A DNA stretch of 32,000 nucleotides from Nostoc punctiforme PCC 73102 (GTDB lineage Bacteria; Cyanobacteriota; Cyanobacteriia; Cyanobacteriales; Nostocaceae), in assembly GCF_000020025.1 (NCBI RefSeq), contig NC_010628.1, positions 780,001 through 812,000 on the forward strand, read 5' to 3'. Below are positions 4,709 through 32,000 of this stretch, piece after piece. The first letter of the stretch is position 1. Every line of letters begins with the position of its first letter. The notes beneath the pieces are model-generated. The model was given only the letters and a program-made list of their open reading frames with translations, was not told the origin of the DNA and searched no databases. The translations under genes were made by a program, and so were the position numbers.

Positions 4709-4735
4709 TAGTCATTGGTACTAATGACTAATGAC
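4704..4735 (-). repeat. 13-bp perfect inverted repeat built from STRR-like heptamers, spanning a stop codon and a start codon
   Basis: gtcattagtcatt-ggtact-aatgactaatgac (arms 4704-4716 and 4723-4735). In mRNA sense, the TAG of the upstream ORF (4728-4730) lies in the 5' arm and the ATG at 4706-4708 lies in the 3' arm. Confidence 0.7.
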
Positions 4736-9023: not shown

Positions 9024-10622
9024 CTACCCGCCAAATAAACGTCCCCAAAAACCCTTCTTCTCATTCTTCTCATTTCTATAAATCTCTAAGTTGTTACGAA
9101 TCACAGTGTTGTTAGGGTTAAGGCGAACAGCTATTTCCAGTTCGGCGATCGCTTCTTCCAACTTCCCTTGACCTTTTAGCGCAATCCCCAGGTTACAGTG
9201 AGCATCTGCATCGTTCGGGTCAATTAGCAAAGCTCTTTGGTAGGCGGCGATCGCTTCTGACAACTTCCCTTGATCGTGTAGCGCAATCCCCAAGTTACAA
9301 TGAGTGTCTGCATCGTTTGGGTCGAGGCGCAAAGCTCTTTGGTAGGCGGCGATCGCTTCTGACAACTTCCCTTGATGGTATAGCGTAACCCCCAGGTTAC
9401 AGTGAGCGCTTGCATAGTTTGGGTCGACGCGCAAAGCTCTTTGGTAGGCGGCCATCGCTTCTGACAACTTCCCTTGAGTGTGCAGCGCTTTCCCCAGGTT
9501 ACAGTGAGCGTTTACATAGTTTGGGTCGATTTGCAAAGCTTTTTGGTAGGCGGCGATCGCTTCTGACAACTTCCCTTGATGGTATAGCGTAACCCCCAGG
9601 TTACAGTGAGCGCTTGCATAGTTTGGGTCGACGCGCAAAGCTCTTTGGTAGGCGGCCATCGCTTCTGACAACTTCCCTTGAGTGTGCAGCGCTTTCCCCA
9701 GGTTACAGTGAGCGTTTACATAGTTTGGGTCGATTTGCAAAGCTTTTTGGTAGGCGGCGATCGCTTCTGACAACTTCCCTTGATCGTGTAGCGCAATCCC
9801 CAAGTTACAATGAGTGTCTGCATCGTTTGGGTCGAGGCGCAAAGCTCTTTGGTAGGCGGCCATCGCTTCTGACAACTTCCCTTGAGTGTGCAGCGCTTTC
9901 CCCAGGTTACAGTGAGCGTTTACATAGTTTGGGTCGATTTGCAAAGCTTTTTGGTAGGCGGCGATCGCTTCTGACAACTTCCCTTGCGTGTGCAGCACAA
10001 CCCCTAGTGCATTGTGAGCATATACAGAGTTTGGGTCAAGGCTGAGGGCTGCTTTGTATTTGACGACTGCTTCCTCTAACTTTTTAGCTTCGCGCAAACG
10101 ATCTGCTTCATTGATCAGGCTTGTGACTTGATATTCAAGTTCTTTTGTTCTTTGTTTTGGAGGTGAGGAATTGGAGTTTTCAACTAATCGCACTGCCTCC
10201 CGAATTCCCTTAACAACTTCTAAGAATGCCTCATCTCGGTCATTCCAGCTTTTGATAGGTTTGCGATTACTAGGTAGTGGCGACAGTTGATCGATGGGAG
10301 GAGTTTCCCAATCTGCATAACGTAGCAACACTGGGATCACACGAGCTTTTTTCGCTGTATTCTGCTCTAACGCTCGTGTCACTTCAACTGTCCAGTGATA
10401 ATCAGAATCTATAAAATCAGGGCTGATTAGCAATAATATCAGCCCAGCCTGGTTTAAATGCTCATCTATTTCGCCTTTGATTTCTTGTCCAGGGATAATT
10501 TTGCGATCGTTCCAACTTGTAATAATGTTTTCCCGACGCAAAGACGCTAAATGCTTCTCTAACTCTTGGCGTAGCGTCTCATCTTCCTGGTGGTAAGAAA
10601 TAAAAACTTCAATAGATTTCAT
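9024..10622 (-). CDS. TIR domain protein with ~10 C-terminal TPR repeats
   Basis: N-terminal ~135 aa is a TIR (TIR_2-like): EVFISYHQEDE, LILLLISPDFIDSDYHWTVEV (conserved Glu), ARVIPVLL. About ten 34-aa TPR units follow (AHCNLG.ALH.QGKLSEAIAAYQ.AL..DPN). Confidence 0.85.
   Translation of the reverse strand: MKSIEVFISYHQEDETLRQELEKHLASLRRENIITSWNDRKIIPGQEIKGEIDEHLNQAGLILLLISPDFIDSDYHWTVEVTRALEQNTAKKARVIPVLLRYADWETPPIDQLSPLPSNRKPIKSWNDRDEAFLEVVKGIREAVRLVENSNSSPPKQRTKELEYQVTSLINEADRLREAKKLEEAVVKYKAALSLDPNSVYAHNALGVVLHTQGKLSEAIAAYQKALQIDPNYVNAHCNLGKALHTQGKLSEAMAAYQRALRLDPNDADTHCNLGIALHDQGKLSEAIAAYQKALQIDPNYVNAHCNLGKALHTQGKLSEAMAAYQRALRVDPNYASAHCNLGVTLYHQGKLSEAIAAYQKALQIDPNYVNAHCNLGKALHTQGKLSEAMAAYQRALRVDPNYASAHCNLGVTLYHQGKLSEAIAAYQRALRLDPNDADTHCNLGIALHDQGKLSEAIAAYQRALLIDPNDADAHCNLGIALKGQGKLEEAIAELEIAVRLNPNNTVIRNNLEIYRNEKNEKKGFWGRLFGG
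9224..10010. repeat. Near-identical 102-bp / 204-bp tandem repeats encoding the TPR array
   Basis: The antisense shadow ORFs at 9410 and 9614 begin with the same 57 residues, so about 170 nt are identical at a 204-nt offset. The sense protein carries AHCNLGKALHTQGKLSEAMAAYQRALRVDPNYASAHCNLGVTLYHQGKLSEAIAAYQ twice in succession. Each unit contains GGCGATCGC or GGCCATCGC. Confidence 0.9.
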
Positions 10623-10657: not shown

Positions 10658-11401
10658 CTACAATAGTTTTTGCTCGATTTCCTCAAGCTGTCGATCTAAT
10701 CTATTTTGTTCTGTTTGGGTATCCTGAATTTGCACTTCTAGCTTCAGCTTTGTAGATACATCCGTTTCAATGGCGTATGCTTTACCCAGCAGTCCCAATT
10801 TTTTGCTCACGAGGTCATACTGTTCTTGCACTGAATCCCGTTCTTGCTCCCATCGCCGACGCTGGCGCTCAGTTAATACCCCACTTGTTGCAGAAGGGCT
10901 GGAAGTTGCAGGTGTAGTATTTTTAGCAGGAGTTGAGGAAGAAGTGTTTGATTTCGCCATTTCTTCAACTACTCTGCGAATCCCTTGAGCGACATTTAAA
11001 AAAGCCTCATCTTGGTCTTGCCAGGTTGTGACAGGTTTAGCATTTTTAGGGAGTGCTTGCAGTTTACCAAAAGGTGCGCCATTCCAGTCCGCCGGCTTCA
11101 GAATAATCGGAATGACACGAGCTTCCCGCGTTTCATGTCGCTCCATTGCCCGTGTCATTTCTTTGTCGTAGCAGTAATCTGAAGCCAGAAAGTTAGCACT
11201 CACTAGCAGTAGAATGATATCTGCAATATCAAGATTATCATCTATCTCATTAGCCCATTCTCTACCAGCACTGATTTCGCGATCGTGCCAAGCTTCAATA
11301 ACTCCCTGACGTTTCATCATGCTCAGATGAGTTGCCAACTCGTCTCGCAACGCTTCATCTTTGTGGGAGTAGGAAAAGAATACTTTAACTGCATTAGACA
11401 T
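10658..11401 (-). CDS. TIR domain protein with Ser/Thr-rich linker and C-terminal coiled coil
   Basis: VKVFFSYSHKDE, IILLLVSANFLASDYCYDKEM (Glu81), ARVIPIIL define the TIR. Residues ~150-175 are S/T/P-rich. Residues ~176-247 are a heptad-like charged coiled coil. A 35-nt gap separates it from the downstream TIR-TPR gene on the same strand. Confidence 0.85.
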   Translation of the reverse strand: MSNAVKVFFSYSHKDEALRDELATHLSMMKRQGVIEAWHDREISAGREWANEIDDNLDIADIILLLVSANFLASDYCYDKEMTRAMERHETREARVIPIILKPADWNGAPFGKLQALPKNAKPVTTWQDQDEAFLNVAQGIRRVVEEMAKSNTSSSTPAKNTTPATSSPSATSGVLTERQRRRWEQERDSVQEQYDLVSKKLGLLGKAYAIETDVSTKLKLEVQIQDTQTEQNRLDRQLEEIEQKLL

Positions 11402-14015: not shown

Positions 14016-14255
14016 ATGAACGCTTATAAAAAATACATCACCATTACAGATCCCAGTCAATTAATATTATCTGATTTACCTTTTCAGGTAGGACAGAGGG
14101 TAGAAATAATCATATTAGCGGAGGATAATCCAAGAGCAGAAATCAGTAAGAAATTGAGAGATTTATTTGATAAAACACAGTTATTACCAGGAGTAAAAGA
14201 TATTACAGAAGCAGAAATTGAAGCAGAAATTGAAGCTTACCAACGCGGAGAATGA
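14016..14255 (+). CDS. Putative antitoxin of a PIN toxin-antitoxin pair
   Basis: 79-aa ORF preceded by ggagg. Its stop overlaps the start of the PIN gene (ATGA at 14252-14255). Acidic C-terminus (EAEIEAEIEAYQRGE). Confidence 0.6.
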   Translation: MNAYKKYITITDPSQLILSDLPFQVGQRVEIIILAEDNPRAEISKKLRDLFDKTQLLPGVKDITEAEIEAEIEAYQRGE

Positions 14256-14665
14256 AAGTTGTTATTGATACTAATGTTTTAGTTTCTGCTGTCCTTAAGG
14301 GTAGAGTACCAAGAGAAGTTATTCAGTTTATTTTTGATAATCCTGATTGGCAATGGATAGCCTCTGAAGAAATTATTGTGGAATATAAAGAAATCTTAAG
14401 TCGAAGCAAATTTAAATTGACAGATGAGGTAAGAGGTGAATGGTTTGAAATTATCGATACATTTCTAACGCTAATTGATGTCAATTTTGAAGTTGATTTT
14501 CCCAGAGATAGAAAAGATGCAAAGTTTTTAGCTTGTGCTATGGCAGCAGAAGCAGATTTTTTGATTACGGGTGATTCTGATTTTAATCAGGCACAAACTT
14601 TGCTAAATACAACAATTATTTCTGTTTCTTTATTTAGCAGATTAGTTTGTGATGTAGGGGGGTGA
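14252..14665 (+). CDS. PIN-domain toxin (PIN_3 / TIGR00305-like)
   Basis: MKVVIDTNVLVSAVL N-terminus, with acidic residues in DRKDAKFLACA and ITGDSDF at positions expected for the PIN active site. 4-nt overlap with the upstream small ORF. Confidence 0.8.
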   Translation: MKVVIDTNVLVSAVLKGRVPREVIQFIFDNPDWQWIASEEIIVEYKEILSRSKFKLTDEVRGEWFEIIDTFLTLIDVNFEVDFPRDRKDAKFLACAMAAEADFLITGDSDFNQAQTLLNTTIISVSLFSRLVCDVGG

Positions 14666-16561: not shown

Positions 16562-16722
16562 TCAAGGTTGGGTGTGCCGCTAGCTTGGGCAGCATGAAAT
16601 ATGTCTACATGTGTGCCAAAACTCATAAATGAGTTTGTGTAGCGGTGAAATCTACCAAGGCAAAGTTAGTATCAGGAGCAATTTACATGACCAGTCCAGC
16701 ATCTGATTTACTAGATAAAATT
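16527..16722. repeat. Copy 1 of a ~200-bp duplicated segment (5' flank plus first codons of the methyltransferase gene)
   Basis: atattctgatataaatcgccataagttgggaatactcaaggttgggtgtgccgctagcttgggcagcat ... caaggcaaagttagtatcaggagcaatttacATGaccagtccagcatctgatttactagataaa aligns with 18139..18340. The ends are highly similar and the middle is roughly 70% similar by eye. Confidence 0.8.
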
Positions 16723-18012
16723 CGTCAGCAATTTGATACTTCTCCTTATCCTAGAGTTCCTCTTGATAAATCTCCTAAAGATAATCCTAATTTACTTTAC
16801 ATTCATAGCTTAGTTACACCTTACTATTTAAGGAACCAAAAAGTTATCGATACCAAAGAGAAAGTAATTTTGGATGCTGGATGTGGTACTGGCTATAAAT
16901 CATTAGTCTTAGCAGAAGCTAATCCAGGTGCAAAAATTGTTGGTATTGACATATCAGAAGAATCAATTAAATTAGCACAGCAACGCTTAGAACATCACGG
17001 ATTTGACAATGCAGAATTTCATGTATTGCCAATTCAAGAATTGCCAAAACTAAATTACCAATTTGACTATATTAATTGTGATGAGCTTCTATATCTTTTT
17101 CCTGATTTAGCTGCTGCCTTACAAGGAATGATATCTGTTTTAAAGCCTAATGGGATTATTCGCAGCAATCTGCATAGTTCAATCCAGAGATTCCCTTATT
17201 TCCGTGCTCAGAAAGTCTTTACAATGATGGGTTTGATGGACGAAAATCCACAAGACTTAGAAATGGAAATTGTAGTAGAAACGATGAAAGCTTTGAAAGA
17301 TAATGTCGAACTCAAAGCTAGAACTTGGAATCCTAATAAGTATGAAGGAGAGAATGGAAAAGAAGGAATTTTAATGAATTACTTATTTCAAGGAGATAAA
17401 GGTTACACGATTTCTGATATGTTTACGGCTTTGAAAGCGGCCGATATAGAATTTATCAGCATGGTTAACTGGCGACAGTGGGACTTAATAAACTTGTTTA
17501 AAGATCCAGATAATTTGCCTGTTTTTCTGGACATGAGTTTACCAGAAATTTCTATAGAAGAGCGGCTACAGTTATTTGAACTAATAAATCCTATTCATCG
17601 GTTAATTGACTTTTGGTGCGGTCATTCTAATCAAGTACAGGCTTTTATACCAGTTTCACAATGGGCTGACTCTGATTGGCGACTGGCAAAGGTCAGTCTG
17701 CATCCTCAGTTAAAAACTCGCAATTTCCAAGAAGACCTCATAGCCTGTATTACAGAATTCAAAATCTTTCCTATCAGTGACTATTTATCGCTAGTTGAGG
17801 AATTTGTCGGGATAGATAGCTCATTAGCACTTTGCTTAATACCTTTATTAGAACAATCCCAGCCGATGAAGTTCCTGGTAGAGCATTGGAAACAATTTAG
17901 ACCTTTAGATCCTATAACCTTAAAGCCTACAGATGAAGAACAAGCCTTTCAAATGGTGCAACAGCTGTTACTAAAGTTAGAGAGTCTTGGTTACATAATG
18001 TTAGAACTTTAA
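16687..18012 (+). CDS. Class I SAM-dependent methyltransferase with long C-terminal extension
   Basis: VILDAGCGTGYKSLVLAE (motif I), IVGIDISEE and LKPNGII, followed by ~270 aa with no motif I recognise. The track start (16645) is GTG. I prefer the ATG at 16687 because aggag lies 8 nt upstream. Confidence 0.8.
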   Translation: MTSPASDLLDKIRQQFDTSPYPRVPLDKSPKDNPNLLYIHSLVTPYYLRNQKVIDTKEKVILDAGCGTGYKSLVLAEANPGAKIVGIDISEESIKLAQQRLEHHGFDNAEFHVLPIQELPKLNYQFDYINCDELLYLFPDLAAALQGMISVLKPNGIIRSNLHSSIQRFPYFRAQKVFTMMGLMDENPQDLEMEIVVETMKALKDNVELKARTWNPNKYEGENGKEGILMNYLFQGDKGYTISDMFTALKAADIEFISMVNWRQWDLINLFKDPDNLPVFLDMSLPEISIEERLQLFELINPIHRLIDFWCGHSNQVQAFIPVSQWADSDWRLAKVSLHPQLKTRNFQEDLIACITEFKIFPISDYLSLVEEFVGIDSSLALCLIPLLEQSQPMKFLVEHWKQFRPLDPITLKPTDEEQAFQMVQQLLLKLESLGYIMLEL

Positions 18013-18494: not shown

Positions 18495-19037
18495 ATGAAA
18501 GAGATTAAACTTCATATTGGTGGAGAAAAAAAACATCCAAATTGGAAAATATTTGATATTGAACCTCGCCCAGAAGTAGATTATATTGGCAACGCATCTG
18601 ATTTAAGCCAATTTGAAAATAATTCAATTTCTGCAATTTATGCCAGTCATGTTCTAGAACATTTTTATCATAGAATAGATAATGAGTTAATGAATACATT
18701 AACAGAATGGTATCGTGTTCTAAAACCAGGCGGGCAACTTTTTATTAGTGTCCCCGACTTAAAAAAATTATGTTGGTTTTATCTGCATCCAGAATTTACA
18801 GTAGTTGAACGTCTGCATCTAATGCGGATTATCTTTGGCGGACAAACTAATATATATGATGTTCATAAGGTAGGATTTGATTTTGAAATATTGTCTATAT
18901 GTTTAGAAGAAGTTGGGTTTACACAATACGAGCAAGTAGAGACGTTTGATATGTTTGATGATTGTAGTACAATCCGTATTTTAAATACACTAATCAGCCT
19001 CAACGTCATTGCTCAAAAGTCAACATCTTCAGAGTAA
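18495..19037 (+). CDS. Small SAM-dependent methyltransferase (Methyltransf_11-like)
   Basis: 180-aa ORF. ISAIYASHVLEHF and WYRVLKPGGQLFISVPD resemble the post-motif-I region of type 11 methyltransferases common in polysaccharide loci. Motif I itself is atypical (LHIGGEKKHPNW). Confidence 0.6.
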   Translation: MKEIKLHIGGEKKHPNWKIFDIEPRPEVDYIGNASDLSQFENNSISAIYASHVLEHFYHRIDNELMNTLTEWYRVLKPGGQLFISVPDLKKLCWFYLHPEFTVVERLHLMRIIFGGQTNIYDVHKVGFDFEILSICLEEVGFTQYEQVETFDMFDDCSTIRILNTLISLNVIAQKSTSSE

Positions 19038-19691: not shown

Positions 19692-20258
19692 ATGAAAACT
19701 GAATTGAAAGCAAAGTTTCTCCAACACCTCCTCGGCAAAAAGAAGGAAAATGAGGGTTTTACACTCATTGAATTATTAGTAGTAATTATCATCATTGGTA
19801 TTTTGTCTGCGATCGCTTTGCCTTCTTTCTTGAACCAAGCTAACAAAGGTAAGCAGTCAGAAGCTAAACAGTATACTGGTTCGATGAACCGCGCTCAACA
19901 AGCATACCTTTTAGAAAATGGTGATTTCACCAGTACAATGGATAAGCTAGGTCTTGGTATTAGAACCCAAACTGAGAATTATGCATACGCTATTAATGGC
20001 GGTACTACTCTGGTTGCCAACAATGGTATATCTCTGAAGGGGACGCTCAAATCCTACAAGGGTGTTGTTGTTAAATCAATAGTATTATCCACCAGTGAAG
20101 CAACTACTCTAGCCGTATTATGCCAGTCTGATACTGTTGGTGATCGGAGTGCTGAAGTAGCAAGCTATGGCACAGCTGGAACCACAGTGGCTGCAACAGG
20201 AACCACCCCATTGCAACCTGGTTGTAGCACAGGCTTTTCAGAGTTGACTTCTAAGTAA
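19692..20258 (+). CDS. Type IV pilin-like protein (prepilin with N-terminal cleavage/methylation motif)
   Basis: The leader MKTELKAKFLQHLLGKKKENEG is followed by FTLIELLVVIIIIGILSAIALPSF (Gly -1, Phe +1, Glu +5). It has two Cys near the C-terminus (LCQSD...PGCSTG, a D-region-like pair) and a Thr/Ala/Gly-rich tail (YGTAGTTVAATGTTPLQ). Confidence 0.85.
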   Translation: MKTELKAKFLQHLLGKKKENEGFTLIELLVVIIIIGILSAIALPSFLNQANKGKQSEAKQYTGSMNRAQQAYLLENGDFTSTMDKLGLGIRTQTENYAYAINGGTTLVANNGISLKGTLKSYKGVVVKSIVLSTSEATTLAVLCQSDTVGDRSAEVASYGTAGTTVAATGTTPLQPGCSTGFSELTSK

Positions 20259-20376: not shown

Positions 20377-22587
20377 ATGACTTCTGTCCAAATTCCTAAT
20401 GACATCTCTCCATTAGAGCAGCAAGCCCAGCAATATTTTACCAAAGGTAACTATACTAAAGCTGCTAACTGCTATGAACAAGCTATCGAAATAGAACCAG
20501 AAGTGAAATCTCACTACTGGAACTTAGGATTAATGTTGCTATTGCAAGGGCAAGAAGCAGAAGCGCAAATAACTTGGCTGCTGGGTATGGAGGAGGGAGA
20601 AGCCCAACAAGTTGAGCAATGGACTGTGGAATTGATACAGGTTTTGCAAACTGAAGCCGAACGCAGAGAGACACTGGCAGATTATTCAGTTGCTTGGGCA
20701 ATTCGCCAACATATACGGGAAATCTCTCCTCAATATGTGAATAATCTTCTGTATTTGATTGAGTTATCTATTAAGCTAGAAAATTTTACTGGTGATGAAT
20801 TAGCTTCCCTAGAAGTAATTGAGTTAATTCAGTCAGAAGCAATTATAGATATTGAGTTATTATTGCAAGTATTAAACAGTATCATCAATGATGACCCTTT
20901 ACATCCTTCTGTCCTAAAGTTTGCACAGTGTTGTCTAGCCCATGTAATTCAACCTCAAGCTTTTATTAATATTTTGCTGCCAGCCGCAGTCAAAATCGCC
21001 CATTCTATGCGGCAAAATAAAGTAGCAGTATTAATAATTGAGCTATGTTTGCACCTTGAACCTGAAAATATAGAACTTCTGCGCCATCTCGCTGCTTTTT
21101 ATCTAAGAGATAATAATTATTCTCAAGGAATAGAAGTAGCTAAGTTATGCTACTCACTATCAAAGACTGTAACTGACCAAGTTTTTGCTAAACACCTAAT
21201 CCAGCGAGGATTAATGGAAGCTCCTGCTTATTGGAACGAAGCTTATACAGTTTGCCTAGAGCAGGAATATTTACTAAACTGTTTAATAGAACAACAACCT
21301 ATAAATTTGGAATCAGCTAGGGTATTACGTCTCTTCAATGCTAATTCTTATGCATCGTACTTACAAGATAACCCTGTAAAAAATAGACAAATTCAGAATA
21401 AAGTGGCACAACTTTGCCAGCTTAACGTACAAGAATATGCTAATGAAATAGTTCAGCGATATAAACAACGTAGTTTATATAAGGCAAATAAGCAAATAAA
21501 GATTGGCTACTTATGCCATTGTTTTTCTCAGCATTCAGTTGGTTGGTTGGCTAGGTGGCTAATTCAACACCAGAACCGGGAAAGATTTGATATTTATGGC
21601 TATTTTATAAATTATAAGCAAATAGACGATCCATTGCAAGAATGGTATGTTCAACAATTCACTCAAGCTTATCAAGGTGGAATTTATAGTGACGACATTG
21701 CTGAAAAAATTTATGAAGATAAGATTGATATTCTAATCGATTTGGATAGCATTACCTTAGATATTACTTGTGAAATTATGGCGCTTAAACCTGCGCCTGT
21801 ACAAGCAACATGGTTAGGTTGGGATGCTTCAGGAATACCAGCAGTTGATTACTTTATTGCCGATCCTTATGTTTTACCAGAATCTGCTCAGGAATACTAT
21901 ACAGAAAAAATCTGGAGATTACCCCAAACCTATATAGCAGTGGATGGTTTTGAAGTAGGTGTGCCAACTTTACGGCGAGACTCTCTTGATATTCCTAGTG
22001 ATGCTGTAGTTTATCTCAGCGCTCAAAGAGGATTTAAGCGCCACCCAAATACAGCACAACTCCAAATGAGAATTATTAAGGAAGTGCCTAATAGCTATTT
22101 TTTGATTAAAGGGTTAGCGGACTCTGAAGCTGTGCAGAAATTTTTTATGCAGTTAGCAGAGCAAGAGGGTGTAGAGTGTTCGCGTTTACGATTTTTACAG
22201 TTAGATCCTTCTGAGTCTGTTCACAGAGCAAATTTAGCCATTGCTGATGTTATATTAGATACTTACCCTTACAACGGTGCAACAACAACCTTAGAAACAC
22301 TCTGGATGGGTATTCCTTTAGTAACCAGAGTTGGACAGCAATTTGCCGCCCGAAATAGCTACACCATGATGATGAATGCTGGGATCGCAGAAGGTATTGC
22401 CTGGACTGATGAAGAGTATGTAGAGTGGGGTGTGCGCTTAGGCAAAGATGAGGCTTTACGACAGCAGGTGGCTTTGAAGTTGAAAGCATCTCGACAAACA
22501 GCACCATTGTGGAATGCAAAACAATTTACCTGTGAGATGGAGAAGGCTTACGAGCAAATGTGGCAAAGGTATATTGAGAAAAAATAA
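20377..22587 (+). CDS. TPR protein with C-terminal GT41 (O-GlcNAc transferase / SPINDLY-like) glycosyltransferase domain
   Basis: N-terminal TPR (FTKGNYTKAANCYEQAIEIEPE...). C-terminal ~370 aa carries IKIGYLCHCFSQHSVGWL, ATWLGWDASGIPAVDYFIADPYVLPESAQEYYTEKIWRLPQTY and LDTYPYNGATTTLETLWMGIPLVT, which I recognise as bacterial OGT/SPINDLY-family motifs. The track start at 20371 is TTG; the ATG is at 20377. Confidence 0.8.
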   Translation: MTSVQIPNDISPLEQQAQQYFTKGNYTKAANCYEQAIEIEPEVKSHYWNLGLMLLLQGQEAEAQITWLLGMEEGEAQQVEQWTVELIQVLQTEAERRETLADYSVAWAIRQHIREISPQYVNNLLYLIELSIKLENFTGDELASLEVIELIQSEAIIDIELLLQVLNSIINDDPLHPSVLKFAQCCLAHVIQPQAFINILLPAAVKIAHSMRQNKVAVLIIELCLHLEPENIELLRHLAAFYLRDNNYSQGIEVAKLCYSLSKTVTDQVFAKHLIQRGLMEAPAYWNEAYTVCLEQEYLLNCLIEQQPINLESARVLRLFNANSYASYLQDNPVKNRQIQNKVAQLCQLNVQEYANEIVQRYKQRSLYKANKQIKIGYLCHCFSQHSVGWLARWLIQHQNRERFDIYGYFINYKQIDDPLQEWYVQQFTQAYQGGIYSDDIAEKIYEDKIDILIDLDSITLDITCEIMALKPAPVQATWLGWDASGIPAVDYFIADPYVLPESAQEYYTEKIWRLPQTYIAVDGFEVGVPTLRRDSLDIPSDAVVYLSAQRGFKRHPNTAQLQMRIIKEVPNSYFLIKGLADSEAVQKFFMQLAEQEGVECSRLRFLQLDPSESVHRANLAIADVILDTYPYNGATTTLETLWMGIPLVTRVGQQFAARNSYTMMMNAGIAEGIAWTDEEYVEWGVRLGKDEALRQQVALKLKASRQTAPLWNAKQFTCEMEKAYEQMWQRYIEKK

Positions 22588-22721: not shown

Positions 22722-25700
22722 TCAGTGCTTACTACAAACTTCTTTATAAAAGGCTTCTAAACCTGTAACACAAGCTTTATCATCAAAAAGGCGATCGTGG
22801 TTTTGGCTCATTCTTTCTGCAATGTTGCGTCGCCAAGCCTGGTCTAGTCCTAATTTGACAGCAATTTCGATATATTCGGCTTCATTTTGAGCGATGGTAT
22901 CCGTCACTCCTAGCATTTTTAAGAAGCTGTCAGAGTGACGACCCCGCATAAATTCCCCTGGACAGGTGACAATGGGGAGATTACAAGCGATCGCTTCTAG
23001 AGTAGTATTACCACCAGACCAAGTAAATGTATCTAAATAAACGTCTGAAAGTAAGTTAATCATTAAATAGTCTAGTCGCTCTGGAATACTGAGAAATACA
23101 CAGTAATCCTCACTGTTAAGTCCAACAGCAGCAAAAGCACGCTTTAGGCGTGGCTCAAGTAAAGTACCACGCAAAAACACAAACTTAGCTTGAGGAAGGC
23201 GGCAAGCAATTTCTGCAAAAATGAAATCATATTGGGGTAGATATTTAAAAGGAGCTTGGCAGCATAAATAGATAACTGCATCATCTTCTAGCCTAAAATC
23301 GGAACGGGTTTTGATAACAGGAGGAATATATGGCTTAGGGTAAGAAACCCCAATATTGGGTAAGCGGATTAATTTTTCTGAGTAATGTTCTTGGGCATTT
23401 TCGGGCTCCATTAACTCGCTAGATAAAAAGTAATCAATTGTGGGTAAGCCAGTTGTCACAGGATGTCCCCAAGCCACACATTGCAAAGGTGCAAGCCGCA
23501 AACCCGCCATTTGCATGGTTTTAGCATCCATACCTATCTCTGGAAAGACTAAAATATGCAGTTTATCAGCAATTATCTGTTCACAAGCTGCTGGTAAGTT
23601 ATGAGGAATATGGTGAAAAACATCGCTGTAACTTTGGAACTGTTGGGTAATAGGATCTGGCTCGTTTCCCGTGTAGTAACAGTAAATTTCAAAATTTTTG
23701 CGATCGCAGTAACGTAACCAGCCAGTTAACCAAAGTGTGCCACTATAAGAATGCAGGTAATGTGAAGCGTAACCAATACGAATTTTGTTATTAGGCTGAA
23801 GCTTAGGCATAGATAAAGGAACTATCCATTGTGGATAGTTAGCTGCCATGATTTCATGTACTAACTTTCCATACTGGCGTTGCAAATCAATATCATTTTG
23901 TGCCTGATATGATAGGTAAAAATTTGTGAGGCGGCCTATACCTGCTAAAGCACTTTGTTGTTCTTTTGTAGTTTTCAGATATGTTTGCTGAATTAAATCT
24001 TGCAGTCCTTGAGTAAAGCGCTGGCGATAGAAATTAATTTCCTCTTGATTTTCGTATATTGATGGAACTGTTAAATATTTTAGAATTTGAAAAGTGTAAT
24101 CATTAGGTAAGCATATATGAGCCTTTTCTGCACTTGATATTGCTTCTTGAATAAGTCCATTACGCCGCAAGTCTATGATTAATGAAAAATGTAATCTTCC
24201 TTCCGTAGGATAAAGTTCAATTCCTTGCTGGAGGGTGTGAAAATACTCGTCTAATAGGTTTAACTGTCTATAGCAATAACTTAAATTACAATAAATATCT
24301 GCATTTACAGATTGGATTTCTAAAAGTTTTTCATATTGGGCGATCGCTTCTGTCCATCTGCCCTCTTGAAATAATCTAGTACTTAAATCAAAAACTAACT
24401 GTCCTATATGTATATTGTTAAAGCTTTCTATTTCATAAGCTGGAATATTCTCTATTAAAAATAATGCTAAACCCTCCAGGTTTTCATCTTGTAAAATAAT
24501 TCGACCGTGGAGGAAAGGAACTATAGCTCTTAGTTCAATTTCATCTAAATTCCCTAGCAAAGAAATTTCACATTCTACAGTAATATCAAAATTCTCTGCT
24601 AGTAGTAGATTCATCGCCACAGTAGATAAAACTAGATTAGCATCATCTTCAGAAATACCATTAGTATTTATAAGTAACGTTATCTGGCTACTATCAGAAT
24701 GATTGATTACCGTTTTAATTGCTTGTTCTAATTCTAGAAGAAGTAACTCTTCCGATTGCGACCAATCAGGAAAAATTATAATATTGATATTTCCATCTTT
24801 CACCGCTAAGGTGTCTATAATAGATACTTTCCCTCTGTTAGTTAAGTTATTTTTTTCTCTTTTAAATAAAATATTTAGTTGATTGCTTAAATTATCTATT
24901 TGGCAACAATGGATTTTACCTACTGCCACTTGTGCTAAAGCTTGTTTATCCTCATGTTCTAAAATAATTCTTGCATTGATGCGAGTTAGCAAAGCTTTCC
25001 ACTGAATATCAGTTAATTTACCCAATAAAGAAATTTCTAATTCTTCGGTAACATCTAAATCTTCCTCTATCAAAAGATTCATAACTACACTAGATAAAAA
25101 CAGTTCAGCATCCTCACCAGCAATGTTAGTAATATCGATAAGTAGCGTTGTATTTTTATTATTGGGATGAGTGGCAATCGCCCGGATAACTTGTTGTAAG
25201 TTTAAACCAAGAGACTCTTCTGATTGCGACCAATCAGGGAAAATAATTAAATTAATTTTATTGAGATTTAAAGAAATCAATGTAGCATTAATTAATACAG
25301 AACTAACAGTTTGCGCCATTTTTATCCAAGAAAACTGTTGCACCTGTACTAAACCTGCGGTAATTAATGAGTGACGAATACTAGGTTTTTGCACTTCAAA
25401 AAGTGAATTTGCCATTTCATGTACATCATTATCATTAACATATATTGCAGCTTCACCTGCAACTTCTGGAATTGAAGCATTAGGACAAGTAATCACAGGA
25501 CAACCACAAGCCATTGCTTCGAGTATGGGCAATCCAAAACCTTCATACTTAGAAGGATAAACTAATGCTACAGCACCAGAGTAAGCTATTGCTAACTCTT
25601 CATCACTGAGATGTAGCAGGTGAACGATACTACCTGATGTATAAGCTCTGAATTCTGGTGACAATACACCGTCACTTCCTGTTACGACAATATCAAATCC

Positions 25701-28700
25701 ATAGCTACTTGGAAGCTGTGAAAAAGCTTTGAAAAACAAAATACTATTTTTATAAACATTACCAAGCCGAACTAATAGGAAGTAGGGCTTAGTAATACCG
25801 TATTTTATTTTAAATTGATGAATATTTTCCTGAGTAGCTACTAAAAACGTTGTATGGTCAACCCCATTCTCAGCAATTGTTACAGACTCTAAGGCGATTT
25901 GTGGAAAGTAGGTTACTAAATCCCGTGCTGTATTTTTTGAAACCGCAATAAAGGCAGATGCGTGTTTAATTGCATAATGTTTTTCTTGCCAGATGATATG
26001 ATTTAAGTTTGAACCTATTAGTTCTGCTATCATGTCATGTGCCATGAATACAGAAGGTGTAGTAATTGGTGTTGTATGATAAGAAGAAATAAATAAATCT
26101 GCGCCTTCTTCATCGCACACTTGCTGTAGCATTGAGCGATCAGATTCAATATTATCGTAATCATGATATGAGATTGTGCGATATCTAATACCAGGAATTA
26201 TGGGTGCAGTACCATCACGGTCAAGGAGAATAATATGTTTAGCAAATCCATTTTTTGCCCATTGTTCTAACAATGATTGCCAGACACGAGCAATGCCAGT
26301 TTGATAAAGTTGAAAGAAAACACCATCAACTATAATTAGTGGTGTTGGTTTTTCAACTTGTGCAATTTGCTGCTGTATTTCATCTGGTTGTAAGAACTGC
26401 CAATTATTGCTGCTGAGTTCTTTTTGTGCAATTGGTACTATACCCAATTTTTCAGCAGTATCAACCCTAGTTTCATCTCTTACCCATGATAAGTATTCAC
26501 GCAGAAGAACTGGAAACTTAGTTATTTCCTGTAAAGCCTGCCACTGATAAACAGCATTACTGTAACCATAGTATTGCTCTTTAAATTGCAATTGTTGTGC
26601 TGTTACATAGGCAAAATGTTGGAAAATTAAACCAAGCCTTTCAGTTTCTTCATGTAAAAAAGGATTAACTGCCGCAACATTTTTATATTCACCATCTAAT
26701 GAGGTTTCTACTAATACGGGAGGTTCATGTGCTGCCCAAAATGCTCCTGGTTTAAATCTCCAAGTTCTTAGCCACTCTAGTTGAGGATTTTGTGTATAAC
26801 AGTTACGAGTACTGATAATTAATTTTTCTCCTACAAAATACCAGCACCAATAGAAAGCAGCTGTTTTCTCAGGGTTGCTAATGAACATTTCTCTAGCATC
26901 ACAAATCTGCTCTAATGTCCACAATTCATCTACATCAACCTGCCACAACAAACACTCCTCTTGAATGTTGACAATTGGTGCATTGACCATTTCTCGTTTT
27001 CCGTCCCAAAAAATACCCTCTGGTTTTCGGTATATTGTGACTTGGGTCGGGTAAAGTTGCGCTACTTCATCTAGATATTCTGTAGTCCCATCGTAACTAC
27101 GACCATTTTTATGGATTTCATCACTGATATTTCCACCTAGTTTCACACTCCAACTTGTGTCGTGTTTTAAGTCTGCTACACCTTCAACAATATGCCAATG
27201 CCATTTAAAAGGAAGATGTTTAAATACTTCAATGTGATACTTAATAAACGGTTGCCCATTTAGGACTATTGTAAAAAAATGAATTGGCAATTCTGGCATT
27301 GAGTTATTAACAGCATTCAAGACTTCTAATTCTTGACGAATAACCAGCTTAGGCAGTTCAGTTTTACAAATATTATCATTATTAAAAACGGATTCAAATA
27401 AGTATTGAGCAGCTTGATTTTCTGGTATTTTTCTGACTTCTTGTAGAATTTCTCTTAATGCACTCTTTCTAAGTATTCCAAATGACAACGCACTAAGCGG
27501 AATGTTGAGTAGTGGAAGTATTTCTAATGCTTGTGGATATGTAATGTTTCCCTGGCGGAATACAAGTTTTTGTTGCTGATTGAATACCCCAGAGATAAAT
27601 ACGCCATCCTCTATTCTGTTTTCTACAGTTGATAGCCAACCTCCGGTAAAAACTCCATTTATATCTTGAGAATCTGTAGATGTTAGGATATCAATGGCTG
27701 AGGATATAAATGATTCATCATACTGAGTATAGTTGTTAGCGATAAGTATATAATCTGCTACTATATTTTCTGTTAAAGATAAAATAGAGTCTATGATAGT
27801 TTGATAATTGCTTAATTCGCAATCATTAATTTCATATATCACTATGTTTTTATATCGAGATTTATGCAAATAATCAGGGAAAATTTGACTTTCAATCGGT
27901 GATAAAGTATTGTATTTTAGATATATAATAGCTACTAAAAAAATATCTGGAACTAAATTATTATGATAATTTAAACTCTGTTCTTTTATGAGAATTTTAT
28001 GATTTTCTATTTCTTGCAATTCTTGCTTGTAAAAATCTTCTTCTTGTTCTGGCAATCGATTATCCAAATCGTTACTAGGTAAATTATCGAGGGAAGAACC
28101 TAGCATAATTCTGTTACAAACTTTATCTAAGGTTGGATCATTACCTGGCTGCAAATCATCTAAACTTTCAAATCTCAATTCGTGGGAATAAAAATTCTTT
28201 ATACCAATTGAGCGAAATTTATGAGAAAATTTAAAGAAGTAAGCATTCGTAAAGCGATAAAGTCTCTTTAAATCTTCTGATGTTAGTTTAGATGAATCTT
28301 TCAATAGGTTATCAACGAGTTGATTTAGATGTTCAATACTAGTGTCTTGAATAGTGTATCGTGAGGCTTTTTCATAGGATGAAGTTGCTAATGTTGCTGT
28401 TGGTACACCTCTAGCGATCGCTTCAATTGCCACTGTGCTAAAAAAAGCGATCGCTGCATCTGTATGCCAAAGCAATGCATAAGAAGTTAACTGTTCAGAA
28501 GGCATTACAACGCGGACATTTTCTGGTATAGAAAATACCTGTTGATAAGCTTTTGATAAAAAATCGCTTTCTATTGGTGTATCTTTATTACCTCCTATAT
28601 AAGGATGATGACGAATTACTAAGTATTCATTTCTATTTTTAAATATCTCTATTAAATTTTTAATAATATCAAATTGCGTGGTAATTTTTACCTTCCCTTC

Positions 28701-29591
28701 TAGCGCCGCTAGTTCATCTTCGCTTGACGTAAATACAGCGAATATTTTTGCGTCTAACGGTATCCTAAGTTGATGATGGATATTTACAGGACTTGTTTGA
28801 AAGTTATAAAAAGCAGGCCAGTTTATATCTATACCATATTCACGCTTTATAAAATAATTTTTAGTCTGTACTAATTCTTCATTATTCAGTGTTATTTCTT
28901 CCCAAGCTTTTACACAATCTAAGGGTGGTTGGCAACTCCATGTAGGATGGTTATCAAAGAAAGCAAAGCTATCATCAATCGAACCTCTTTCGTGAGTAAT
29001 TACGTCAATTTTCATCTGATGTGCTACCTCAAATGCTATACGATAGGGAGCAAATCGACCATTAAACAGAAACACATTAGTCGGTTGATATTTATTAAAT
29101 AATCTAATTAACGCATTGTAAGTCACTAAACCATCTATTAAATATTTTCTATGGATATTCTGGACATAATTGCTAGATAGCCCTGCATCAGCTATTCTAA
29201 AGTGAGTATGAATGGTTGAAGTTACCCATTTACCAATTGGTAAACTATCATATTTAGCATTTTTATAGTCTTGAGGAAGGACTGTTTTCACCCATTGATT
29301 AGCAATAATATAATCGTCGTTTTCAATAAAATTACGTAGTTGCATATATGGAAGTCCAAATAAATCTTCAAAGAAGTTTTTGCCGACCTTAGCACAGTTT
29401 TCACATAATAATTCTTTGTTATTATTTAACCTTGTAATAGCGCAGTCATTGTAAACTCCGTCACAGCCTATAACCAAAACTTCACAACTGCGAAGTTGTA
29501 GACCAGTAGCTACAACAGCATCGAGTTGGTTATGAATTAACCAAAAGCCATACGGAGAAAAGAACAGAACCTTATTTTTTTTAGACATCAT
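22722..29591 (-). CDS. 2,289-aa multidomain glycosyltransferase: KpsS/KpsC-like, degenerate GT2-like, GT-A (DxD), GT4, 2x unknown module, TPR and GT41
   Basis: Single uninterrupted ORF. Approximate map (aa / nt):
- 1-450 / 29591-28240: Capsule_synth-like ([32 protein letters not shown]).
- 560-740: GT2-like with ANNY in place of DxD.
- 765-1060 / 27300-26410: GT-A-like ([18 protein letters not shown]).
- 1085-1440 / 26340-25270: GT4 ([19 protein letters not shown]).
- 1446-1760 / 25257-24430: duplicated [11 protein letters not shown] modules.
- 1770-1900: TPR.
- 1930-2289 / 23800-22725: GT41 ([56 protein letters not shown]). Confidence 0.8.
24430..25260. repeat. Internal tandem duplication (two ~115-aa modules, 468 nt apart) inside the giant ORF
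   Basis: [81 protein letters not shown] versus [81 protein letters not shown]. The Trp codons are at 25230 and 24762. Confidence 0.85.
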
Positions 29592-29768
29592 GTTGATTTA
29601 GTTGCTAATAAAAAAACAAATTGTTTGTGCAATATTTTTAAATAAAACTGCTGATTATAATCAAAATTATAAGCTCACTTTAATATAACTTTTTTACTGA
29701 TAGTAGTTATAGTTGCAATAATTTATAATACCCAATACTTGCAAAAATATTTCATTCAAATTATAAAA

Positions 29769-30746
29769 CTAAATTATCGACTTGCACAATTGAGCTACTC
29801 GTAAATCTGCATTATGCTGCTGCTTAAAAAATGTCTTATCTATTTCTCTATGGGTTGAATTCAAAAATTCCTGTACCTTTTTTTGCGATTTTAAAGGGAC
29901 AGTAACTCCCCATTTATTGGTCATCAGTGTATCATTCACACCCATAAGCAAACTGCCTGCTGGTATCCCCATTAAAACCGCTTCAATGAGAATGATGGAA
30001 GTAATTCCCAAAACAATATCCTGTTGTTGCAGGGTGTCTAGTATGTCGGTACTTTCGTCAATTGCAAACGGTAAGCCTGATTTTGCCAGCAAATCAAGGG
30101 AATCACGACACTTACCTTGGCGTGGATGAAACCGGATCAGCAATTTTTTCAAAGGTTTATAGTCAGTTAACACCTTAATTAAGATGTGAAGAATTTCAAT
30201 CTCGTTAGCATTGGGTTGAGAAGCAAATAAAATATTTTGTACTACTTCTAGAGTATTTTTTCTAGATTTTTTTCTAGCAACCAACCAAGCAAAATAAGGC
30301 TGTCCTACAATGCAAATTCGATTTTTTGGTAATCCATCGGTAAGCATTCCTGTCGCACACACTTCATCTATGGCTGTGATAATATTTGGAAAAATTGCTT
30401 CTGCATCAGGATTGTTGAATGGTTGAAAACGCTGACGATAATTTGCCCAATAGTCTATAACAGCAACACTAGGAATACCCTCTTGCCTTGCCCAAAAAAT
30501 AGCATCGCGTTCAAACTCATCATTTTGAGATGTTCCTGTTAGCAGAATATCTCCTTTTAATCTCACAAAAAGAATTTGGTGTTCTTCAGAAATTGGCGTA
30601 CAAGCAACTGCAAGACGTTGAAATTGACGGATGGCTGGGCCTTTAGCATACGCTTCTACCTCTGTACCTGCTGCCCGCAAGGCTGCAACCGTTGCAGCCA
30701 CAGCATTAGCACCGCCTGGATCGTGAGCGATCGCAATAATCTTCAT
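29769..30746 (-). CDS. Hypothetical protein (Rossmann / GT-B-like by appearance), translationally coupled to the DegT gene
   Basis: 325-aa ORF starting MKIIAIAHDPGGANAVAATVAAL. Its ATG (30744-30746) overlaps the TGA (30743-30745) of the upstream aminotransferase. No family recognised with confidence. Confidence 0.65.
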   Translation of the reverse strand: MKIIAIAHDPGGANAVAATVAALRAAGTEVEAYAKGPAIRQFQRLAVACTPISEEHQILFVRLKGDILLTGTSQNDEFERDAIFWARQEGIPSVAVIDYWANYRQRFQPFNNPDAEAIFPNIITAIDEVCATGMLTDGLPKNRICIVGQPYFAWLVARKKSRKNTLEVVQNILFASQPNANEIEILHILIKVLTDYKPLKKLLIRFHPRQGKCRDSLDLLAKSGLPFAIDESTDILDTLQQQDIVLGITSIILIEAVLMGIPAGSLLMGVNDTLMTNKWGVTVPLKSQKKVQEFLNSTHREIDKTFFKQQHNADLRVAQLCKSII

Positions 30747-32000
30747 TTATCTTTTCCTCGACTTAACTCTTCAGCATGAGCCAGGACTTTAGCAACAGAA
30801 GCTACGAAACGATCAACTAAGTCAATACCCCCAGGTATTTGGATGAGAGTTGTAGATAAAAGTGTCTCGTTATATGTCTTTTCAGCTATGGGACAGACAC
30901 CAGTAGGATGACTGACAATTGTCTTGCCTTCTTGTTGCAGCTTTTGGAAAAGAGGTAGTCTGTATAAAGGACGCACATAACGCCCCGTTAAAGGACATCC
31001 TTCTGCTTGAAGTGCCTCCACAAATCTGTCCCGCGACAATCCAGCTTGTTGTGGATCGATCCAGATGGGATATGTATAGTAAACATGGCGATCGCCACTG
31101 CCAACTTTAGCCGTCCGCAATGCTTTAAACTTAGACAAGCCTTGGTCTAAAGCTTCAGCAATTTTTAGCCGTGGCTGTGTCAATTCTTCCAAACGTTGGA
31201 GTTGAACCTGAGCGATCGCCCCTTGAAGTTCAGTTAAACGGTAATTGTAACCAACAATATCAGCATCTTCATACCAGTTTTCCGCTTCTATTGCGTTCTC
31301 TCCATGATTACGCACCAGTGCTACTCGCCGCGCCAAGTAATCATCATTAGTGACTACAATCCCCCCTTCACCACACTGAATCGTTTTGTGACAATTGAGG
31401 CTGAAAACTCCCAAATGCGCAATTGTCCCCAACCAACGGCCCTGATGCTGACCTCCTGGTGCTTGGGCATTGTCCTCAATTAGAATCAAACCATGTCGAT
31501 CTGCTAATTTACGTAAGCGCACCAGTTGGGCTGGGCCCCCAAACAAATTGACTGCGATAATTGCTTTTGTGCGTGTGCTAATAGCACCTTCAACAGCTTC
31601 TGGATCAATGCAGCAACTAGCCTCCTCATGATCGACAAAAACAGGAGTACCATTTGCCATAACCACTGCTGTTGCCGTTGCTGACATCGTTTGCGGTGGC
31701 ACAATTACCTCATCACCAAAACTAACACCAGCTGCAATCACAGCGGCATGTAAACCACTAGTAGCAGAGTTAACACTCAAAGCGTGACGAACATTAAAGT
31801 AGTTAGCCCATTGTTCTTCTAATGTGCGAACTTGTTTCCCACCCATAAAGTACAGCCCAGCAGCACCGATATAGTCAGATAAAATACCGCTTTTCAATAC
31901 TTGAATCGCGGCCTCTGTCTCCTGAAAACTAGTACTGATATACCTTGGTAATGGCTCTGGAAAAACCTTGGAACCTCCGAGTAAAGCCGGTTTTTCTCTA
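30743..32000 (-). CDS. DegT/DnrJ/EryC1/StrS-family PLP-dependent sugar aminotransferase; N-terminus runs off the window
   Basis: SATSGLHAAVIAAG, DEVIVPPQTMSATA and FSLNCHKTIQCGEGGIVVTND (PLP lysine). The track start at 31897 is TTG. My translation stays open upstream to position 32000 (...EKPALLGGSKVFPEPLPRYISTSFQETEAAIQVLKSG...), matching the usual DegT N-terminus, so the true start is outside the window. Confidence 0.85.
   Translation of the reverse strand, partial: REKPALLGGSKVFPEPLPRYISTSFQETEAAIQVLKSGILSDYIGAAGLYFMGGKQVRTLEEQWANYFNVRHALSVNSATSGLHAAVIAAGVSFGDEVIVPPQTMSATATAVVMANGTPVFVDHEEASCCIDPEAVEGAISTRTKAIIAVNLFGGPAQLVRLRKLADRHGLILIEDNAQAPGGQHQGRWLGTIAHLGVFSLNCHKTIQCGEGGIVVTNDDYLARRVALVRNHGENAIEAENWYEDADIVGYNYRLTELQGAIAQVQLQRLEELTQPRLKIAEALDQGLSKFKALRTAKVGSGDRHVYYTYPIWIDPQQAGLSRDRFVEALQAEGCPLTGRYVRPLYRLPLFQKLQQEGKTIVSHPTGVCPIAEKTYNETLLSTTLIQIPGGIDLVDRFVASVAKVLAHAEELSRGKDK

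Follow-up and report, generated by a model that had tools for sequence, protein, structure and literature searches.

In cyanobacteria, pilin glycosylation is known only through Ogt, a transferase with tetratricopeptide repeats (TPRs) and a GT41 region, which is needed for glycosylation of the major type IV pilin PilA and whose gene adjoins pilA in 38% of 201 cyanobacterial genomes. In Nostoc punctiforme, a model organism for motility and plant symbiosis that is amenable to genetics, loss of ogtA prevents PilA accumulation and motility. FlmG, a soluble protein made of TPRs and a GT-B transferase, places pseudaminic (Pse) or legionaminic (Leg) acid on flagellin in the cytoplasm. KpsS1, a KpsS homologue of family GT118, is a proven pseudaminyltransferase. 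An HP motif is typical of transferases that use cytidine monophosphate (CMP)-activated sugars such as sialic acid, Kdo (3-deoxy-D-manno-oct-2-ulosonic acid) or Pse, and is carried by Pse/Leg transferases (PMC5420450). We analyzed 32,000 nucleotides of DNA from N. punctiforme PCC 73102 (contig NC_010628.1, positions 780,001 to 812,000), hereafter the window, in which the gene Npun_R0678 (locus tag taken from a published expression table) encodes a giant protein near ogtA and pilA. We propose, with a probability of about 0.5, that this protein is a soluble multi-step glycosyltransferase for PilA or another hormogonium surface protein, and that its N-terminal domain, N1, adds a nonulosonic acid (NulO), a sugar resembling sialic acid. 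The locus would then be a complete, co-regulated candidate pathway beside pilA, from sugar synthesis and activation to transfer.

Domain architecture of Npun_R0678

The product of Npun_R0678, labeled "glycosyl transferase, group 1" in the databases, is encoded by one uninterrupted open reading frame (ORF) of 2,289 codons, as the original prediction, made from the letters of the window, had stated. Given the base composition of the gene, stops should come about once in 14 codons; a run of 2,289 codons free of them has a probability of ~1e-75, and 126–250 stops occur in the other five frames over the same stretch. The identical protein sequence recurs in 59 blocks of a public assembly collection (25 contigs read), and full-length orthologues of 2,288–2,290 amino acids (aa), 88–93% identical, are present in three other Nostoc genomes. 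A frameshift or assembly chimera is therefore ruled out. No transmembrane segment is predicted, in line with the original reading: the highest Kyte–Doolittle mean over 19 residues is 1.71, within a folded beta strand, and on this profile we rejected a membrane protein. The mass, estimated from length, is about 260 kDa. Promoter and terminator scans at both ends of the gene gave nothing above chance. The searchable literature, queried with the locus tags of the cluster and with nonulosonic or pseudaminic acid in combination with cyanobacterial pili or Nostoc hormogonia, yielded no functional description of Npun_R0678 or its cluster.

According to profile matches and predicted structures, the chain comprises three GT-B and two GT-A domains, hence five with a transferase fold, along with TPRs and a module, named M by us, in two copies. 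Pfam and NCBIfam cut-offs are passed only by the GT4 and TPR-GT41 parts; residues 1–1083, searched whole and in segments against both collections, have no match above threshold. The three N-terminal domains (N1, N2, and N3) rest on AlphaFold2 models (pLDDT, the predicted local distance difference test score, 93–96) compared with the PDB by Foldseek. Profiles thus support two transferase domains, as few as the original prediction had said would speak against it, and the predicted structures recover three more. Its picture of many transferase domains on one chain holds for the number of domains, which belong to at least four families, and fails for the folds, of which there are two (GT-A and GT-B) instead of four or five. 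The chain probably has four active sites.

Homologues of residues 1–764 number 2,884 representatives at E<=1e-3, and 75 of these were aligned. Most span both N1 and N2, many of them as stand-alone proteins of ~720–750 aa, and a minority consist of N1 alone; N2 usually accompanies N1 as a ~730-aa cassette. The AlphaFold2 model of N1-N2 (pLDDT 93.3; predicted template modeling score 0.93) places N1 among GT-B enzymes of the PDB (Foldseek E 5e-8 to 1e-5). The best E-values go to GT1 natural-product transferases, UDP-GlcNAc 2-epimerases, and MurG, and the best TM-score per target (TMt) goes to KpsC, in its N-terminal beta-Kdo transferase module (6mgc, 8fuw; TMt 0.55 over ~345 columns, E 1e-5). The modeled N1 superposes on KpsC and so shares the GT-B-like fold of GT107/Capsule_synth. 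Residues 306–407 give a sub-threshold Capsule_synth/DUF6716 signal. This segment includes the motif R327-x-H329-P330, invariant among the 75 aligned sequences, which corresponds to the HP motif that this group carries in its nucleotide-binding half. E293, in SSEDE, is equally invariant. By conservation alone, E293, H200, and E201 are candidates for the counterparts of the KpsC-type nucleophile Asp (KpsC D160) or general-base Glu. Three cysteines, C43, C63, and C66, are present in all 75 sequences and C50 in 74; they probably form a metal site. The cysteine cluster noted in the original prediction, of which these four are the conserved set, needs two corrections: its first spacing, C36-x6-C43, has six residues and not seven, and it sits within the GT-B domain rather than ahead of it. 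Because of the KpsC-like fold, the invariant HP motif, and the precedent of KpsS1, we propose that N1 transfers a NulO. At four of five further, unrelated loci, genes encoding N1N2 proteins adjoin NeuB and/or CTP_transf_3 genes, including a complete Pse-type cluster and a Leg-type cluster; at the fifth (L013) the contig is too short for the neighbors to be judged.

The predicted N2 has a GT-A fold like that of SpsA (TMt 0.50 over 250 columns). It contains no invariant residue: the expected DxD site at 619–621 (NNY) is variable, and only Y-D-E-S at 624–627 is ~70% conserved. Residues 520–764 gave one sub-threshold unrelated match and no match to a glycosyltransferase family in Pfam at E<=10, including the GT2 profile PF00535. 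N2 is probably non-catalytic, and the earlier guess of an inactive GT2-like region, made from the letters ANNY, was reasonable.

N3 had been described as a GT-A-like domain with the motif VDVDE, and both the fold and the motif are borne out. Its model (pLDDT 95.8) matches GT2-type GT-A structures (CgT, SunS/ThuS, TarS, GtrB, ArnC, and SpsA) with E 4e-6 to 1e-4 and 10–16% identity; SunS and ThuS are glycocin S-glycosyltransferases. D886, D888, and E889 are invariant among 78 sequences, as expected for a DxD-type motif. Residues 765–1083 have no Pfam match at E<=10, PF00535 included, and no sequence match in the PDB. We found 418 N3 homologues, in Polynucleobacter, Acidobacteria, Bdellovibrionales, and others, and the identity among the 120 listed is 52–77%. 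Such identity, reaching into distant phyla, is unusually high for a glycosyltransferase, and no relative detectable by sequence has a solved structure.

The remaining transferase parts are recognized by profiles. Both halves of the GT4 domain pass their cut-offs (Glyco_transf_4 at 1099–1246 and Glycos_transf_1 at 1267–1397; PF00534/PF13439 scores of 71.8 against 26.4 and 40 against 28.5), and the E-x7-E motif previously noted is E1350-GFGLPIL-E1358. A TPR profile match above cut-off at 1735–1800 precedes the GT41 lobes, the arrangement expected of GT41 enzymes, and agrees with the TPRs read earlier. GT41 itself (PF13844) scores 109 bits against a cut-off of 25, with PDB matches to T. terrenum OGT (E 4e-31), human OGT (E 2e-30), SPINDLY (E 4e-25), XcOGT, and HMW1C-like proteins. 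K2116 (QAPFKYLP) aligns with the catalytic Lys842 of human OGT (QLYKIDP), whose Synechococcus elongatus equivalent is K445, and T2195-T2196 align with the TT phosphate-binding pair of GT41. Donors in this family are UDP-GlcNAc, GDP-Fuc, or UDP-Glc, and the acceptor is a protein. As originally claimed, this region is paralogous to the catalytic C-terminal half of the convergent OgtA (28% identity, E 3e-36). Two other identities were tried for the protein. A hormogonium polysaccharide (Hps) transferase was rejected (23.5 and 25.2 bits against the HpsO and HpsP NCBIfam cut-offs of 575 and 550), and no Maf (DUF115-type) flagellin transferase domain was matched by Pfam in the whole protein or its segments.

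The two copies of an uncharacterized module that had been pointed out are M1 and M2, 46% identical to each other (E 6e-32). A profile built from 13 M modules retrieved 171 proteins, and those with a named source are all from cyanobacteria. They include fragments at the ends of GT1/GT4, GT41, FkbM, Methyltransf_24, or DUF5672 proteins as well as stand-alone M proteins 130–150 aa long. Profile searches identified neither a Pfam model nor a PDB relative for this family. Its distribution becomes clearer by comparison with other Nostoc strains, in which the same locus holds in a row gene A, a separate 533-aa FkbM-family gene, and gene B. Gene A (1,574–1,867 aa) corresponds to residues 2–1575 of the giant (77–92% identity), with a C-terminal FkbM methyltransferase domain added in some strains, and gene B (712–715 aa) to residues 1579–2289 (~90% identity). 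The junction is exact in the DNA: codons 1540–1580 match gene A and codons 1582–1640 match gene B from about its fourth codon. The giant is a recent, lineage-specific in-frame deletion-fusion of two genes, with the loss of ~2.85 kb that contained the FkbM methyltransferase domain and the whole 533-aa gene. The original prediction had proposed looking for the fusion or its split equivalents in other cyanobacteria, and both exist: the fused form is intact in four genomes, including N. punctiforme, and the split form is found in sister Nostoc strains, Nostoc sp. DSM 114161 among them. The split strains carry exactly one M per polypeptide, at the C-terminus of the transferase part of gene A and at the N-terminus of gene B, and none in the FkbM protein or OgtA. 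Because each separate polypeptide has its single M, we suggest that M modules are docking or assembly modules.

Comparable giants of 2,167–2,183 aa, with the order N1N2-GT4-GT2-GT41-M, are present in other Nostoc strains. The architecture, rightly called unusual at first, is therefore a recurring Nostoc theme and not unique. In an unrelated metagenomic locus (L010, 24103..24572 onward), a 1,867-aa protein with about four GT2 domains and a GT41 domain is encoded adjacent to an N1N2 gene, a further case of a very large multi-transferase chain near such a gene.

The pilA-ogtA locus and its predicted nonulosonic-acid island

The coordinates of the giant, its parts, and the neighboring genes are given in table 1. 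The published transcription-start sequence of pilA matches the window at 19687, and the C-terminal 35 residues of PilA are rich in Ser and Thr. Upstream of the giant and on the same strand lies a series of genes, partly outside the window, that we read from a 27-kb locus (L004). Toward the giant their order is a CapD-type dehydratase, DegT, CTP_transf_3, PseG-like GT28, methyltransferase, WbqC, NeuB (Npun_R0684), acetyltransferase, CTP_transf_3, oxidoreductase, DegT, and Npun_R0679. From the established Pse and Leg pathways, we take the CapD/DegT/NeuB/PseG/CTP_transf_3 set to be one for NulO synthesis, so that the genes Npun_R0690 to R0680 would make and CMP-activate a NulO of the pseudaminic/legionaminic type. 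The original prediction had seen the convergent GT41 gene and missed this upstream pathway, which probably feeds the KpsC-like domain.

Npun_R0679 has no Pfam match. Its segment LLIRFHPRQG aligns with the HP-motif region of N1 (hhalign), and it weakly matches NF046086, the BFO_1060 family, which includes a Tannerella Pse/Leg transferase. No counterpart was found in the sister strains. With its two CTP_transf_3 genes, N. punctiforme may make two CMP-sugars and use two HP-type transferases.

Transcription, another point that the original prediction had put forward for checking, is documented by published RNA-seq. At 0, 1, 6, 12, and 18 h of hormogonium induction, Npun_R0678 values are 4, 90, 161, 95, and 86 in the wild type and 4, 13, 33, 50, and 69 in a sigJ deletion. 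The whole block from Npun_R0691 to R0678 shows hardly any expression in vegetative filaments and is induced within 1 h, and ogtA and pilA show the same early induction. Without sigJ the induction of the island is reduced and delayed; without sigC or sigF it is unaffected or higher.

The GC content around the giant gene (window 24000..30000) is 32–37%, against 41–46% elsewhere in the window, and falls to 24.5% at third codon positions of the gene. The same slot of the Nostoc sp. 210A chromosome, flanked likewise by thioredoxin-reductase, permease, and ROK genes, contains pilA and ogtA, a different NulO cluster with formyltransferase and aldo-keto reductase genes, and a different giant of 2,183 aa (N1N2-GT4-GT2-GT41-M). 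As both the sugar cluster and the giant differ there, the pilA-linked slot behaves like a hypervariable surface-glycan island, possibly one exchanged horizontally. The synteny of pilA, ogtA, gene B, gene A, and the NulO cluster is kept at all Nostoc loci examined. We also observed XisH/XisI genes between the giant and ogtA of Nostoc sp. 210A (L014, 16549..17291), a hint of recombination activity in the slot.

Table 1. Features of Npun_R0678 and neighboring genes (positions in the window)
Feature	Position	Strand	Description
Npun_R0678 ORF	22722..29591	minus	ATG start, 2,289 codons + stop; ACC79430.1 / WP_012407455.1 / UniProt B2J9D1
N1 (aa 1-512)	28056..29591	minus	GT-B fold (AlphaFold2 + Foldseek); proposed CMP-nonulosonate transferase
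Cys cluster C43, C50, C63, C66	29394..29465	minus	probable metal site; conserved in the 75-sequence alignment
R327-H328-H329-P330, HP motif	28602..28613	minus	R327, H329, P330 each 75/75
Linker helix N1/N2 (aa 513-545)	27957..28055	minus	long helix, 514-545 by DSSP on the model
N2 (aa 546-764)	27300..27956	minus	GT-A-like, without conserved DxD (ANNY); probably non-catalytic
N3 (aa 765-1083)	26343..27299	minus	GT-A fold; widespread, mostly stand-alone ~300-aa family, no Pfam model
V885-D886-V887-D888-E889	26925..26939	minus	DxD-type motif of N3
GT4 domain (aa 1084-1435)	25287..26342	minus	GT-B, retaining type; PF13439, PF00534, PF13692 above cut-offs
E1350-x7-E1358	25518..25544	minus	GT4 motif match (EGFGLPILE)
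M1 (aa 1445-1570)	24882..25259	minus	C-terminal module of gene A in split strains
Fusion junction (aa 1578-1584, REK/NN/LT)	24840..24860	minus	blastn flanks in locus L001: 14621-14743 (gene A), 17589-17766 (gene B)
M2 (aa 1601-1726)	24414..24791	minus	N-terminal module of gene B in split strains
TPR region (aa 1727-1905)	23877..24413	minus	TPR_11, 30.7 bits vs cut-off 26.8, at 1740-1770
GT41 catalytic region (aa 1906-2289)	22725..23876	minus	Pfam PF13844 and PDB matches
pilA (Npun_F0676)	19692..20258	plus	major type IV pilin, Ser/Thr-rich C-terminus; upstream of ogtA
ogtA (Npun_F0677)	20377..22587	plus	TPR-GT41; convergent neighbor of the giant
Npun_R0679	29769..30746	minus	325 aa, second HP-motif GT-B-like protein, immediately upstream of the giant; hhalign to N1 HP region
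Npun_R0680	30743..32000 (runs past window)	minus	DegT/PseC-like aminotransferase; first visible gene of nonulosonic-acid cluster R0680-R0690

Just upstream of pilA, Npun_F0673 (16645..18012, +) and Npun_F0675 (18495..19037, +) encode S-adenosylmethionine-dependent methyltransferases that are induced at 1 h with pilA and are sigJ-dependent. PilA ends in ELTSK, and the C-terminal lysine of Synechocystis PilA1 is trimethylated, according to a review; both proteins are candidate pilin methyltransferases. Farther away, two adjoining TIR-domain genes (9024..10622 and 10658..11401, both −), one fused to nine TPR repeats, may be a defense or signaling pair. A GHL10 glycosyl-hydrolase-like gene is seemingly split (4728..5051 and 5088..5999, both −, covering profile positions 1–246 and 258–304), which could reflect a frameshift, a pseudogene, or a sequencing error. 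A PIN-domain toxin gene (14252..14665, +) adjoins a 79-aa gene called in L004 that probably encodes its antitoxin.

Proposed function and alternative explanations

We suggest the following sequence of events. With the CMP-activated NulO supplied by the island, the giant would assemble a short hetero-oligosaccharide together with Npun_R0679 and OgtA. The GT41 region and the TPRs would recognize, select, and prime a protein acceptor; N3, through its DxD motif, and GT4 would extend the glycan, with N3, GT4, and GT41 each adding a residue derived from a different nucleotide sugar; and N1, with N2 as a non-catalytic partner, would add the NulO. The acceptor would most likely be PilA, favored because of its Ser/Thr-rich C-terminus, and the giant would act on it together with or after OgtA. 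As membrane and secretion signals are absent from these proteins and no lipid-carrier Pfam family occurs in the 27-kb locus, the reaction would take place on the cytoplasmic side, ahead of export, as for flagellin with FlmG and as proposed for pilin with cyanobacterial Ogt. The M modules would hold two separate polypeptides together in sister strains and would stand in tandem here through the gene fusion. The protein acceptor advanced by the original prediction is thus plausible, given the convergence on ogtA, the nearby pilA, and the joint induction in hormogonia. More tentatively, the product would be a strain-specific oligosaccharide with a NulO cap, built directly on pilin or prepilin with no lipid carrier by a soluble five-domain assembly line held together by fusion or by M as a hitherto undescribed cyanobacterial docking module of ~125 aa; N1-N2 would then found a new family of NulO transferases, and N3 a new GT-A family of unusual conservation.

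Several observations weigh against the proposed role. Type IV pilins of other bacteria are glycosylated after translocation by membrane oligosaccharyltransferases. Khayatan and colleagues, in 2017, reportedly read OgtA as a regulator of PilA accumulation, with glycosylation of PilA not proven. At four loci outside Nostoc, N1N2 homologues do not adjoin pilin genes, and the cassette therefore does not of itself specify the acceptor. As for the donor, Foldseek E-values of N1 are better for GT1 enzymes than for KpsC; N1 stays below the Pfam Capsule_synth threshold (PF05159; 15.5 bits against a cut-off of 20, E 0.013), and the KpsC match of an N1 profile against PDB sequences is not significant (E 0.19). 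The KpsS/KpsC-type N-terminal domain of the original prediction therefore survives as a GT-B fold for which KpsC gives the best TM-score per target, and falls as a membership: by the Pfam threshold N1 is not a Capsule_synth protein, and it is better taken for a distant relative with a probably similar mode of action. Finally, GT4 enzymes usually sit in polysaccharide or lipopolysaccharide (LPS) clusters, and stand-alone N3 homologues are found in clusters of this kind with GT4, GT2, GT9, and sugar-nucleotide enzymes (three loci, L007–L009), a setting that fits a genuine transferase role for N3.

The last points bear on the alternative that survives best, although we consider it unlikely. Npun_R0678 might build a glycan on a lipid carrier or directly extend a polysaccharide on the cytoplasmic side of the membrane (hormogonium polysaccharide, O-antigen, or a capsule-like polymer), with export or en bloc transfer by enzymes encoded elsewhere and the adjacency to pilA reflecting co-regulation with motility. 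Relatives of KpsC/KpsS, like GT4 enzymes and stand-alone N3 proteins, are typical of capsule, LPS, and exopolysaccharide clusters, the multi-module capsule polymerases, such as KrkA, WbbB, and KpsC, come closest as precedents for a chain with many transferase modules, and a dedicated polysaccharide leaves hormogonia by way of the pilus system. However, no Pfam family for an initiating phosphoglycosyltransferase, a flippase, a polymerase, an ABC exporter, or an O-oligosaccharyltransferase (Wzy_C-type) was found in the 27-kb locus, nor for the first, second, and last of these in the window, the rest of the genome not having been searched. TPR-GT41 enzymes of solved structure or known function modify proteins, and the known hps genes lie elsewhere, the GT4 domain reaching 23–25 bits against HpsO/HpsP cut-offs of 550–575. 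Moreover, the island and pilA-ogtA vary together between strains in one chromosomal slot.

A second alternative, which we regard as improbable, keeps cytoplasmic protein glycosylation and replaces PilA by other acceptors: minor pilins, other hormogonium proteins, or several regulatory targets of the OGT type. Many substrates are common among GT41 enzymes, and OgtA, already adjacent to pilA, could itself be the pilin-specific enzyme. The difference in sigma-factor dependence also points this way and counts against our proposal: pilA is strictly sigF-dependent, whereas the island depends on sigJ and not on sigF. Yet the constant synteny of pilA, ogtA, genes A and B, and the NulO cluster at the Nostoc loci speaks for PilA, and a strain-variable, low-GC island is expected for a surface-exposed glycan rather than for an intracellular regulatory mark. 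Lastly, it is very unlikely that the fusion is an evolutionary accident with a partly inactive chain, for instance with only the gene-A or the gene-B half at work and N2 and the M modules as relics, for although a ~2.85-kb deletion took out a methyltransferase domain and a whole gene, and N2 has no conserved catalytic motif, the 6.9-kb frame is kept open in four genomes differing by 7–12% in protein sequence, N1, N3, GT4, and GT41 retain their catalytic motifs, Npun_R0678 is transcribed along with its cluster, and the retention of N2 with N1 in most homologues argues for a kept role.

The central functional claims are thus conditional, and the locus is a well-defined and testable lead on cyanobacterial pilin glycosylation and on NulO transferases, with candidate catalytic residues named for four domains of Npun_R0678. 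Three of its families have no profile model: N1-N2, which has thousands of members and is linked to NulO clusters; N3, whose conservation is high across phyla; and the M module. Few NulO transferases have been characterized, and glycobiology and glycoengineering would profit from a new candidate family of this size. With both split and fused forms, the sister strains offer a natural experiment on the assembly of multi-enzyme glycosylation machines.

Comparison with known systems

Npun_R0678 resembles the cyanobacterial Ogt/OgtA-PilA systems (S. elongatus Synpcc7942_0051; Npun_F0677) in its TPRs and GT41 region, the absence of a secretion signal, the adjacency to pilA, the induction in hormogonia, and the catalytic Lys. 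OgtA, however, has 736 aa and one catalytic domain, whereas the giant adds to a GT41 region 28% identical to it four more transferase-fold domains and two M modules. Common to it and the FlmG/Maf flagellin NulO islands are the solubility of the transferase, TPRs taken to bind the acceptor, genes of a Pse/Leg pathway close by, a likely target that is a filament subunit, and a presumed action before export. The presumed target gene nearby encodes a type IV pilin and not a flagellin, and there is no Maf match. Unlike in FlmG, the putative NulO transferase would be a KpsC-like domain distinct from TPR-GT41, and the extra transferase domains imply an oligosaccharide instead of a single sugar.

N1 compares with the retaining ulosonic-acid transferases KpsC/KpsS (GT107), WbbB (GT99), KpsS1 (GT118), and KrkA (GT140) in its predicted KpsC-N-like GT-B fold, its HP motif, and the linked CMP-sugar synthetase gene. 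It differs from the KpsC/KpsS type by its sub-threshold Capsule_synth score, its four-cysteine cluster, and its GT-A-like partner domain, and those enzymes use lipid or polysaccharide acceptors. For a donor shared with KpsS1, the support is the genomic linkage to NeuB/CTP_transf_3. The Pse/Leg transferases Tanf_01245/BFO_1060 of Tannerella forsythia likewise have HP and acidic motifs and add a terminal NulO to a protein-bound O-glycan (PMC5420450), and it is to their family that Npun_R0679 shows its weak match. They are single-domain enzymes of a general O-glycosylation system based on a lipid carrier, and no similarity to N1 itself was detected.

In KpsC, WbbB, KrkA, and the chondroitin polymerase K4CP, too, a single chain, soluble or peripheral, unites several catalytic modules that differ in family. 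These proteins have two or three modules and make polysaccharide, whereas the giant has five and TPRs, in a context of protein glycosylation. GT41/Ogt proteins beside pilA, NulO islands, KpsC-like ulosonic-acid transferases, and multi-module capsule transferases are therefore known kinds. New at this locus are the way they come together in an island that is linked to pilin and induced during development, the presence of five transferase-fold domains in a single soluble protein, and three families without a profile model (N1N2, N3, and M).

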